This document shows, piece after piece, positions 58,971 to 61,168 of a stretch of 64,000 nt of DNA (position 1 is the stretch's first letter; every line of letters begins with the position of its first letter). The DNA comes from an uncultured Hormoscilla sp. (GTDB lineage: Bacteria; Cyanobacteriota; Cyanobacteriia; Cyanobacteriales; Desertifilaceae), in NCBI GenBank assembly GCA_963921275.4, contig OZ001293.3, positions 3,424,001 through 3,488,000 of the forward strand. Direction: 5' to 3'. The notes beneath the pieces are model-generated. The model was not told the origin of the DNA and searched no databases. It saw only the letters and a program-made list of their open reading frames with translations. The translations under genes and the position numbers were made by a program.

Positions 58971-59425
58971 ATTATACCATACAACGGGTACATCTCAGTT
59001 AGGCGATGAGTAATTATACTTAGTGCTTGTCTCCCTCAAAACGGTACATAATTTAGGCACTGTTGACCACCCTTGACCCATGAACTCCCAAAAGCAGGCT
59101 GAACTCCAGCAACATCTTGACGCGATTGCCGCGATTCTCTACCAGGAAGCCGACCCCACTGAACTCACCACCCTTGAAGGCATTGAGAAAAACGTTCGTG
59201 CGCTTGCCCAAGAACACGTCTGGCCTCAACTAGGAATTTTTTTATCAACACGGCGACTTCCCGCCGCACCGGAAAACAGCGCACCCTGACCAGTATCCTG
59301 GGCAAACTAACCCTCACCACTGCTCAAGCCCAACAACTGCAAGTTAAACCGGGAACTCGTTGGAGTCCGTATGTGGAAAAATGTTGTTGGGTCGTCAGTG
59401 CCAATGCCTCTTACCAGAGAGCCGA

Positions 59426-61168
59426 TTTTTCGGGCCGTCCGCGGACCGTACAAGATCTCGCGATGCTGACTGGGGTGAGCATCTCCCACAGTACGCTCCA
59501 ACGCTTTGTTCAACGAGAGGACTGGTCTGAGGTAGTGCGATTCGTTCCGGCATAAGCCAGTAGGTGAAAGTCGGGTCTGGCTCTATCAGCCAGATAACTC
59601 TGGTTATCATGGGGGTTAAATTCCCTTTCCCCAGGTACGGGGGTCGAGGGTACTACCGGTCGGAGGTGCTACGGAGCCACATCGCCGTGGTACCTCCCGA
59701 GGACTTAAATGTAGGATAACTGGCAGCCTAAGCCGGTGACGCCGCTAGGAAAGATGCTAATGGTTAGAACAAGCGAACCTATGTAAACCTCGTTAACCAG
59801 AACCAGCGGAAGAAGGCTTATGCGCTTGCCCAAAAAGGGAAATGGTAGTTAGTATTAGCTCTTGCCTCTGGCTAATAACGTACTCAAAGAACTCCCGGGG
59901 TATAGTAGGAACCTAAAAGCATCGTGAAATGATACTAGGGAACGAAGTAACCTCTCGTGAGCTATCCCCATTTGGACAAGTTAGATGTAAAGCACAAGCC
60001 ACGAAGAAGAAGGATGTCCTAAGAAGCTAACGCCCAGGGTAATGCCTGTGGATATGCAGACGTAGGACGGATATGGTAAGACACCCTTGGGAAAAGTAAC
60101 CTTAATGTCACAGAACTAGGGAGAAATTCCGAAAGTACGAATTTTGGATTCAAATCTTAGCCAGGTAAAGTTCAGAGCCCTTACGAAAAGCGGAAAGCAG
60201 AATGGGGAAGATGTTAGTAAAGAGCGGCGAGTATGGTTTGCTGAACTATCCTCCGCGAACCTTCCGCAGCTCAGTACTTAAACGGTCCAATAGGATTGAC
60301 CATAAGGGGTAAAATTTCAAAGGGTAAGGGACAACGGGGGTAACCCCCAGTAATCCTACTGATGACAACAGCTTACCAACCAGTAGCCGTGTGCGGTTCC
60401 AGTCGCTCTTCAGGTTTCGCTCTTGGAGGGTTGGGGAGTGATTCCCAGCTCGACCCCGACCGAGATAGCTGAACCGATTCAGGAGCTCAGCTTGGATGGC
60501 GGCATGATTCGCCTTCGTACCGATTTTTCGGGCCGTCCGCGGACCGTGGAGGGTCAACCTGGTGAGTGGCGAGAATACAAAGCCTTAAATGTCCATGAGC
60601 AAGGCAGTGTGGCTTTCTTCAAGGATAATCAAGGGCTGCTTGAGTGGGTGAATGCCCAGCCCCTCGGGGCGCAGTTCACCGGTCTCGGAGATGGTCATGA
60701 TGGGGTGTGGAACATTTTCAGTGGTATCGGGACACCAGAACAACGTATCGAAGTGCTCGATTGGTATCACCTAATGGAAAATGCCAATAAGGTGCAAGGG
60801 ACACCGGCTCAATCCGATTTTTCGGGCCGTCCGCGGACCGTGCAGATCCGATTTTTCGGGCCGTCCGCGGACCGTGCACTCCTGTGGCGAGGGGAGACCC
60901 AGAGGGCGATTAGTTATCTGCGCCAACAGCAATGTCGGGGAGCCACAGGGTTGATCAACTACTTGAAGCACCATCAGACGCGCATCATTGACTACCAGGC
61001 TAGCCCTCCTGGCGTCGGGCCGCTGCGCGAACGGGCAGGCAGCTCGGCACTCGATTGGCTCTGGTCGGGTTGAGTCCCTGGTGAAACAAATTGGGTTAAG
61101 GGTGAAATTACCGGGGGCACAATGGCGAGCCGAGAATGTGCCGATTTTTCGGGCCGTCCGCGGACCGT
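59426..61168 (+). repeat. Five identical 24-bp inserts TTTTTCGGGCCGTCCGCGGACCGT
   Basis: At 59426, 60524, 60818, 60852 and 61145, each immediately after CCGA. Confidence 0.95.
59535..60461 (+). ncRNA. ORF-less group IIB intron in the ISKra4 transposase, DV degenerate
   Basis: 5' GTGCG; EBS1 TGCCTC pairs with exon GAGGTA and EBS2 ACCAG with CTGGT; removal gives WSEV|EIAEP. Confidence 0.9.

Follow-up and report, generated by a model that had tools for sequence, protein, structure and literature searches.

A probable family of mobile micro-elements in Hormoscilla, traced from a 24-nt repeat within an ISKra4-family insertion sequence

Elhai et al. reportedly described in 2008 the small dispersed repeats (SDRs) SDR1-8 of Nostoc punctiforme and its relatives, which are said to have a predicted hairpin, to show nested or self-targeted insertions, to be tolerated in genes and to spread by an unknown mechanism, and which the authors reportedly proposed as perhaps the smallest mobile elements. 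Here we analyze a repeat of comparable size from Hormoscilla, a filamentous cyanobacterium without heterocysts. The stretch under study (the window) is 64 kb long, corresponds to C1:3424001-3488000 of a 7.03-Mb genome, and contains five exact copies of the 24-mer TTTTTCGGGCCGTCCGCGGACCGT, hereafter F1, all on the forward strand. We consider it highly probable (roughly 0.8-0.9) that F1 is a nonautonomous mobile micro-element of the SDR kind, and that it belongs to a modular set of one genus that also includes two shorter families, F2 and F3.

Two further kinds of element offer points of comparison. Members of the IS200/IS605 family, as established for IS608, recognize a hairpin, and their cleavage sites are read by base pairing with a guide located beside it. 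Rickettsia palindromic elements (RPE), of ∼100-150 nt and from another phylum, are mobile palindromes that sit in frame in genes and are not known to have a defined tetranucleotide target. As for the SDRs, passages of the published work describe SDR5 as 21 nt long, present in a few heterocystous cyanobacteria and of unknown function (PMC13756078), locate its insertion between nucleotides 3 and 4 of HIP1 (PMC4390886), and state that no SDR was found outside Nostocaceae (PMC5861425). SDRs are also named, in passages of two other papers, as possible analogues of the REP/RAYT system (PMC3116915, PMC6006769). Our literature search returned no description of such repeats in Hormoscilla, and a term search of a 2019 comparative genomics study of Hormoscilla symbionts (PMC6520454) found none of the words transposase, intron, mobile, and pseudogene.

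In the window, the five F1 copies lie within the transposase gene of an ISKra4-family insertion sequence (IS), as follows:

59426..59449, forward strand: F1 copy 1 (24 nt, ending in T and hence called T-type), after CCGA at 59422-59425; an exact match, where homologues read RAE-QD or RAE-ED without the insert.
60524..60547, forward strand: F1 copy 2, after CCGA at 60520-60523; homologues read RLRTE-EG, and contigs of runs X2 and X6 span the copy.
60818..60841, forward strand: F1 copy 3, after CCGA at 60814-60817; the congener protein P0032 reads TPAQGEQIRALLW, without the insert.
60852..60875, forward strand: F1 copy 4, after CCGA at 60848-60851, 10 nt 3' of copy 3.
61145..61168, forward strand: F1 copy 5, after CCGA at 61141-61144; TAG is formed at the junction (61168-61170), where homologues read ENVPKVLKHRCAYLNG.

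A match scan bears out the first-pass annotation of this DNA, which had reported the 24-mer five times, in one orientation, each time right after CCGA and nowhere else in the window. Specifically, no further F1 match at ≤3 mismatches was found in the window beyond those five, and 100 shuffles produced none.

For the homologue search, we used the transposase frame of an intron-free sister copy of the IS (L019) and scored 234 proteins, several of which are named ISKra4-family transposase. The alignment set comprised 12 ISKra4-family homologues and 7 more, with P0032 named as coming from a Hormoscilla assembly. At each of the five sites, the 8-residue insert is absent from every homologue in this set that covers the site. 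Excising TTTTT...CCGT after CCGA yields RAEQD, RTEEG, SEQIRALLW, and VPKVLKHRCAYLNG, in agreement with the nearest homologues, and this confirms the earlier observation that removing the inserts restores sensible codons. Since removal regains the homologue sequence, the boundary CCGA^ is correct and the final T is part of the element. The other boundary, CCG^T, would replace a conserved E by V at three of the sites and introduce a stop at the fifth one, and on these grounds a model without target duplication is rightly preferred over one with a duplicated CCG. Between copies 3 and 4 lie 10 nt that belong to the original coding sequence of the transposase (QIR), and these two copies therefore represent independent insertions. 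The inserts were also said to keep the reading frame. This holds insofar as each adds 8 residues, but requires a qualification at the fifth junction, which reads CCG TAG and ends the frame. Empty sites exist in the same IS, as noted before: the IS proper has 9 CCGA sites on its forward strand, of which 5 are filled, and 7 on its reverse strand, all of them empty, and when a purine follows the site these figures become 5 of 7 and 0 of 3.

The chance that the inserts are an artefact of assembly, adapter, or vector, or else an ancestral transposase peptide, is practically negligible. In two runs that come from different studies, contigs extend across insert 2 and across the segment separating inserts 3 and 4, the contigs of run X2 also span insert 5, and no insert-less variant is seen among them, so that the raw data, too, carry the inserts. 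RNA run X21 has no reads on this DNA and thus bears neither on expression nor on a removal of the inserts at the RNA level. Moreover, the element is found in four other genomes of the genus, partly at orthologous sites, which together with the spanning contigs excludes an artefact, while the homologues without the 8-residue peptides speak against an ancestral origin.

Across the genome, F1 has 69 matches at ≤2 mismatches and 83 at ≤3 mismatches to a 23-nt core. About 30 of the copies are located outside the IS, and the genome-wide search that had been proposed, with flanks tabulated, thus reveals a family of many copies that is not confined to this IS. The copies are of unit length, as 12-mers inside full copies occur 56-66 times and outside them 0-2 times. 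They represent 40 distinct 40-nt contexts, the five IS sites included, and take two forms. In the first, the A-type (25 contexts), CGA is followed by TTTTTCGGRCCGTCCGCGGRCCGA and then TCG, and the element splits the center of the HIP1 core CGATCG; TCG follows in 22 of 25, and the repeated CGA lets the site be written equally as GCG^ATCGC. The second, the T-type (15 contexts), ends in T, is followed by a purine, and is preceded by CCGA in 11 cases, by CTGA in 3, and by GCGA in 1. The loci examined in congeners add 133 distinct F1 contexts with the same structure: 85 are A-type, with TCG after 70 of them, and 47 are T-type, with CCGA before 35, CTGA before 9, and G (23) or A (22) as the next base. 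Head-to-tail pairs are also present, in which the second unit follows the terminal CCGA of the first.

A k-mer survey, combined with a tabulation of the sequence found after GATTTTTC, uncovered the two sister families. F2 is TTTTTCCGG(A/C)ACGGT, 15 nt long (TTTTT-CCG-GAA-CGG-T), with 204 copies, and F3 is TTTTTCGCG(C/T)AGCG(T/A), also 15 nt long (TTTTT-CGC-GCA-GCG-T/A), with 113 copies, a count that includes diverged paralogous contexts. Common to all three families are a T5 leader, a mini-hairpin rich in G and C, and T or A as the last base. Among the 186 distinct contexts of F2, 183 are T-type, and of these 141 are preceded by CCGA and 22 by CTGA. F3 has 100 distinct contexts, of which 80 are T-type (preceded by GCGA in 31, TCGA in 25, and CCGA in 17) and 19 are A-type (TCG after 11). 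Directly after a T-type copy, F2 contexts continue with G or A in 93% of cases, and F3 contexts with G in 50% and T in 41%. An array of six F3 units in tandem (TTTTTCGCGCAGCGA) is located at C1:4116585-4116674, beside a HIP1 site, and within it each unit follows the terminal GCGA of the preceding one. In the window, F3 is represented at these positions:

2237..2251, reverse strand: F3 copy TTTTTCGCGTAGCGT, after GCGA.
27262..27276, forward strand: F3 copy with one mismatch, TTTTTTGCGCAGCGT, after TCGA.

Overall, the elements are inserted whole, in one orientation, without target duplication, and directly after NCGA. The rule is that the T-ending form is found at C(C/T)GA^purine and the A-ending form at CGA^TCG.

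At 8 congener loci, at least 9 of 14 F1 copies align to a gap of exactly 24 nt in the orthologous sequence of this genome. For example, the histidine-kinase gene at C1:3760295-3761683 has an ortholog in one congener with six copies of F1, all but one of which are on the coding strand. The two genes align at ∼90% identity over 1768 columns, insert gaps included, and five of the six copies face clean 24-nt gaps, the sixth being located upstream in sequence that does not align. Because the orthologous sites are empty, we conclude that F1 has been mobile recently. For F2 and F3, an empty paralogous site is present in the same genome for 18 of 200 and 18 of 112 copies, respectively, with a gap of exactly 0 in 35 of 36. 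In three regions compared with four congeners, several F2 and F3 copies occupy sites in some genomes that are cleanly empty in others, in both directions; the short congener loci contain just 3 F2 or F3 copies, one of them shared with this genome. Together, these presence/absence and flank data support the proposal that a real family of site-specific micro-elements inserts without target duplication. A miniature inverted-repeat transposable element (MITE) was rejected as a candidate, given that the empty/filled pairs have no target duplication and that the ends of the elements are not inverted repeats.

The same flanks bear on template switching, a route in which a nascent ...CGA end would jump to another copy, copy the unit, and return through the microhomology of its terminal CGA. 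In the A-type, the CGA (often CCGA) that precedes the unit does recur at the end of the unit, there are tandem arrays, and the 5' flank is at times altered relative to the empty site (e.g. CTA or CAGA) while the 3' CGATCG stays intact. However, the T-ending majority (183/186 contexts for F2, 80/100 for F3, and 15/40 for F1) would have to make the return jump with a 3'-terminal mismatch, F2 ends in CGGT yet targets CCGA, and the presence of one T5 leader on three unrelated hairpins points to recognition by a protein. As such, we regard this route as quite improbable.

The distribution of the set is narrow. At ≤1 mismatch, all 4 congeners hold F1 (12, 34, 181, and 67 copies) and none of the 36 other relatives does; at ≤2 mismatches, it is found in 0 of 400 other genomes of the phylum, which represent 156 genera. 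A scan of species-representative genomes with a degenerate F1 pattern returned at least 119 stretches, and among the matches listed 78 of 80 are Hormoscilla records; the other two, a deltaproteobacterial assembly (no CGA flank) and a Cohnella record, we read as chance hits of the degenerate pattern. All 4 congeners contain F2 (31-154 copies), as does 1 of the 36 other relatives, with 2 copies; F3, too, is present in each of the 4 congeners (21-44 copies), and in none of the 36. A search of 150 genomes of the same order for the architecture GCGATTTTTC...CGATCGC revealed such a family in no other genus, with 1-3 unrelated single matches each. Viral contigs gave 0 F1 matches. Dispersal of F2 in viruses was considered and rejected, as its 18-mer is found in 7 contigs, six of which share one conserved context and one another, consistent with chance matches. 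The F1-F3 set is thus found in a single cyanobacterial genus, which is very probably Hormoscilla. The kinship with SDRs that the first-pass annotation had pointed to holds in that the repeats are dispersed, precisely present or absent, and tens of nt long, with the F1 sequence itself found in one genus only.

The IS that hosts the five copies has a history of its own. Its parts are as follows:

58986..61280, forward strand: host IS of the ISKra4 family, with 27-nt terminal inverted repeats GGGTACATCTCAGTTAGGCGATGAGTA; the transposase gene is broken, its open reading frame (ORF) being in three pieces.
58978-58985 and 61281-61288: 8-bp target duplication CATACAAC of the host IS.
59237..59243, forward strand: T7 run, at which the transposase frame is off by one relative to homologues.
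59535..60460, forward strand: 926-nt insertion whose ends are GTGCG...AC; of the 12 complete IS copies, 4 carry it, including the one in the window.
61000..61032, forward strand: another small dispersed element, the fourth, ∼31 nt long (CTAGCCCTCCTGGCGTCGGGCCGCTGCGC...); it causes a shift of the transposase frame.

The genome contains 12 complete copies of this IS and one left end, at 98-100% identity. All five F1 inserts are located at identical sites in 9 of the 12 complete copies, while the remaining three have lost some through internal deletions, and 53 of the 83 genomic F1 copies reside in IS copies at those five positions. An individual 8-bp target duplication surrounds each of the 11 IS copies examined. 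The shared insert sites and the separate target duplications indicate that the inserts are older than the spread of the IS and were copied passively by its transposition. A burst within this one IS copy, as had been suggested, is therefore not supported. Instead, an ancestral ISKra4-family IS received the five inserts now seen in the window, all on one strand, and the broken IS then transposed to 12 places. In IS copy 7 (region of C1:3072976), a short deletion took the 3' part of one F1 unit near copies 3 and 4, and the remnant is the sole truncated F1 unit in the genome. We read it as a deletion between the neighboring copies 3 and 4.

Three defects are common to all IS copies, namely the frame shift at the T7 run, the frame-shifting 31-nt insertion, and the TAG after insert 5. 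The ancestor of the IS was already damaged before it spread. The T7 run at 59237-59243 matches the form of a -1 slippery heptamer (T TTT TTA). The 31-nt element, whose length is not a multiple of three, has 29 genomic copies, 12 in IS copies and 17 elsewhere, the latter mostly between GAGATTG and a run of G, a context that F3 uses too. Homologues read YQAWQEAGHSIGSG at this site, without the element, and the run contigs display a depth peak and loose ends at 61000-61035. Homologues of greater length than the transposase were not found, and a Pfam search of the three ORF pieces gave just a subthreshold DDE_5 match. In the genome, there is no close intact copy of the IS transposase, and no other element has the same ends as the IS.

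The 926-nt insertion is related to the abundant, apparently ORF-less group II introns of this genome, with BLAST returning >300 related matches. Its relatives in the window are followed by RF00029, and the insertion itself has no Rfam match at the gathering score and none at E up to 1. Short group II intron-like elements, apparently without an ORF, are abundant throughout this genome; in the window one is located at 30616-31052, and RF00029 matches are found at 31334-31410, 31437-31513, and 7654-7720.

The intron load is relevant to an RNA-mediated spread of F1-F3, an idea that the authors of the 2008 Nostoc SDR paper are said to have suggested for their repeats. In this scenario, the module would be cut or copied from transcripts as a UUUUU-hairpin RNA and enter DNA via reverse transcriptase. 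With 136 candidates scored per genome, RF00029 has at least 137 matches here, at least 134, 108, and 131 in three congeners, 2 in the fourth, and 0-16 in 16 other relatives. Thus, four of the five genomes carry a heavy load of group II introns, the congener with 2 matches is also the lowest in F1 (12) and F2 (31), and group II introns likewise home by an insertion that is guided by base pairing and leaves no duplication. On the other hand, copies truncated at the 5' or 3' end are absent, the elements have neither a ribozyme nor intron-end features, the target at empty sites has no T-run from which priming on the complementary A5 would be possible, and the link with introns depends on one lineage. 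Taken together, we find RNA-mediated spread unlikely, albeit less so than template switching.

Copies of the three families are locally clustered on the chromosome. F2 has 46 gaps between neighbors of <2 kb against 11.9 expected, F3 has 18 against 3.6, and F1 has 3 against 0.3; these values are reached in 0/1000 simulations for F2, 0/1000 for F3, and 3/1000 for F1. Some clusters hold members of more than one family. Neighbors 40-500 nt apart have the same orientation in 23 cases and the opposite one in 11 (p = 0.06), and in the kinase gene, CYGA sites are used 4/16 times on one strand and 1/17 on the other.

Such clusters have implications for a further explanation, namely that a host process marks or inactivates DNA that is mobile or newly entering, at a time when this DNA is single-stranded or extrachromosomal. 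The IS, with its broken transposase, does hold five F1 copies and the 31-nt element, and some of its copies contain an intron as well. On one of its strands, 5 of 7 CCGA+purine sites are filled, when the chromosome has 21,478 such sites on both strands and ∼200 T-type F1 and F2 copies. By contrast, similar clusters are found in ordinary chromosomal genes, many non-IS copies are located in long open frames, and the IS transposed 12 times after gaining its inserts. For these reasons, we find a tagging process very improbable. The first-pass annotation had offered the marking of mobile DNA as one option, and this is unsupported given the same-strand clusters in ordinary genes, including the six copies in the congener histidine kinase, and the genome-wide excess of close neighbors. 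The IS is an extreme case of local, mostly same-strand bursts that are general, and does not count as evidence for a process aimed at mobile DNA. The saturation of one strand of the IS is compatible with clusters that arise in a single-stranded state.

The anatomy of the elements is also informative with regard to their effect on genes. F1 is free of stop codons in all six frames, and the lengths of 24, 15, and 15 nt are all multiples of three, so copies within genes survive as 5- or 8-residue insertions. Non-IS copies are located in open stretches of ≥150 codons in 19 of 32 cases for F1, 113 of 204 for F2, and 48 of 113 for F3, compared with 1816 of 3000 random windows, and the copies do not avoid genes. 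The F1 hairpin is CGGRCCG-TCCG-CGGRCCG. F2 and F3 have 3-bp stems with G-N-A loops, a type of triloop that is unusually stable in DNA, and in their main variants just the middle base of the loop differs (GAA/GCA in F2, GCA/GTA in F3). Variation thus falls on the mismatched pair of the F1 stem and on loop positions, and no Watson-Crick compensatory pair was found among the 133 congener F1 copies, which were scanned with a pattern that allowed variation at just five positions.

What we observe is oriented insertion at unit length, one rule for three unrelated hairpins, self-targeting at the A end, repeated recent activity, and same-strand bursts. We tentatively propose, at less than even odds, that these features reflect a hairpin-guided insertion into single-stranded DNA by an HUH-like enzyme acting in trans. 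An enzyme encoded elsewhere would recognize the T5-hairpin module on single-stranded DNA, would cut after the target CGA and after the terminal CG(T/A) of the element, and the ends would then be joined. The target tetranucleotide would pair with the 5' arm of the element hairpin, in a manner similar to the HUH/Y1 enzymes of IS200/IS605, and if one exposed strand of a region were accessible, local same-strand bursts could result. In line with this, positions -4 to -2 of the target can pair with the 5' stem arm in all families (CCG with CGG for F1 and F2, GCG with CGC for F3). At -4, the targets of F1 and F2, whose arm is CGG, have C, and those of F3, whose arm is CGC, mostly have G or T. The earlier idea of target pairing is hence upheld to the extent that pairing is possible and the -4 base shifts between families as predicted, and it is weakened by F2, which needs a bulge.

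Several observations weigh against this hairpin-guided reading. For F2, the pairing rule holds just when one base is bulged out, and TCGA and CCGA are further targets of F3, whose counts include the diverged paralogous contexts mentioned above. The F1 fold predicted for single-stranded DNA, CGG.CCG/TCCG/CGG.CCG at -7.2 kcal/mol, has a modest z of -2.0, and 7 of 200 shuffles fold as well. The center of the F1 stem (positions 9 and 20) is unpaired, and among 133 copies it reads G..A in 93 and A..G in 29, with G..C (6), A..A (2), G..G (1), A..T (1), and T..A (1) being rarer. The swap between G..A and A..G may reflect two lineages rather than a structural constraint. The non-IS copies of F1-F3 have no overall orientation bias relative to the coding strand. 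Along the chromosome there is no orientation switch (25/300 permutations reach the observed contrast), where the GC skew is too weak and irregular to place the origin. Y1_Tnp (PF01797) has two matches in the genome, both RAYT-like and each flanked by its own, different repeats. The co-occurrence with Y1 genes that had been proposed as a check is not discriminating, since PF01797 is present in 38 of 41 relatives. IS200/IS605 elements have a hairpin at each end, whereas these elements have one. Lastly, reverse transcriptase is probably plentiful in the genus, because 4 of 5 genomes carry >100 group II introns each. Beyond the hairpin-guided insertion and the alternatives weighed here, the remaining odds fall to some other mechanism.

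How do F1-F3 compare with the systems described so far? They resemble SDRs in being dispersed repeats of tens of nt, with precise insertion that often falls within the HIP1 octamer. They differ in lineage, Hormoscilla being nonheterocystous, unlike the heterocystous Nostocaceae from which the available passages report SDRs, and in size, as F2 and F3 are 15 nt long and fall below the published SDR range of 21-27 nt. The set is told apart from SDR1-8 by descriptions, not by sequences. When written as GCG^ATCGC, the A-type F1 site matches the bond used by SDR5, as given in a passage of PMC4390886. However, unlike SDR5, the present elements are not located solely in HIP1. Only the A-type splits CGA^TCG (22/25 here and 70/85 in congeners), while the T-type has left HIP1 and uses C(C/T)GA^R. 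We regard F1-F3 as a new modular variant of the SDR kind.

Similarities with other systems are more partial. Like the IS200/IS605 elements IS608 and ISDra2, F1-F3 insert 3' of a fixed tetranucleotide, without duplication, and move as units. They differ from these in that they neither contain nor adjoin a transposase gene, have a single hairpin where IS200/IS605 elements have two, measure 15-24 nt rather than >600, and show no detected replication-strand bias. REP/REPIN sequences are likewise short hairpin repeats, with a supposed movement in trans by a Y1 HUH protein. REPs, however, are extragenic, carry a GT(A/G)G head, and flank a RAYT gene, whereas F1-F3 have a T5 leader and more than half of them are located in long open frames; the RAYT-like gene at C1:241795 is flanked by a repeat other than F1-F3. 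F1 and RPE are alike in that palindromic inserts are tolerated in frame as additional peptide segments.

With regard to the RAYT-like genes themselves, Y1_Tnp genes of this kind are located at C1:241300-242700 and C1:1348000-1349300, each with arrays of its own repeat. One of these repeats is a classical REP, with GTAG and a GCCCGC...GCGGGC hairpin, and has ∼100 copies genome-wide. Elsewhere in the window, the CRISPR-DR28 model has a single match at 28022-28045 on the reverse strand (35.7 bits against a gathering score of 35). Contig C3 of the assembly (31,420 nt) has 17.6% G+C compared with 47% for the chromosome, and may be foreign or organellar DNA.

Returning to the proposal of hairpin-guided insertion, a broader form of it is more speculative and somewhat doubtful. 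Under this form, one machinery acting in trans would move the whole modular set of 15-24 nt, placing its members after NCGA in single-stranded DNA through pairing with a guide. Its bursts, local and specific to one strand, could fill most sites of a gene or IS, so that mobile elements would be disabled and host proteins would gain loops of 5 or 8 residues.

The papers searched still call the mechanism of SDRs unknown, and the Hormoscilla set represents a cleaner system in which to address it. Specifically, the three families differ just in the hairpin and have a common leader, end base, and target; dozens of exact empty/filled pairs are at hand, in genomes that are ∼90% identical there; and the units are as short as 15 nt and follow an NCGA^ rule. 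The machinery is thereby open to phyletic profiling and to tests with oligonucleotides. If our reading is correct, these units of 15-24 nt would be the smallest mobile DNA units known, and, with so simple a module and so short a target, the enzyme responsible could be identified, which could answer how SDRs move. For the organism, peptides are added in frame to some genes while others are broken, and annotation and comparative work on sponge-associated cyanobacteria should expect such inserts.

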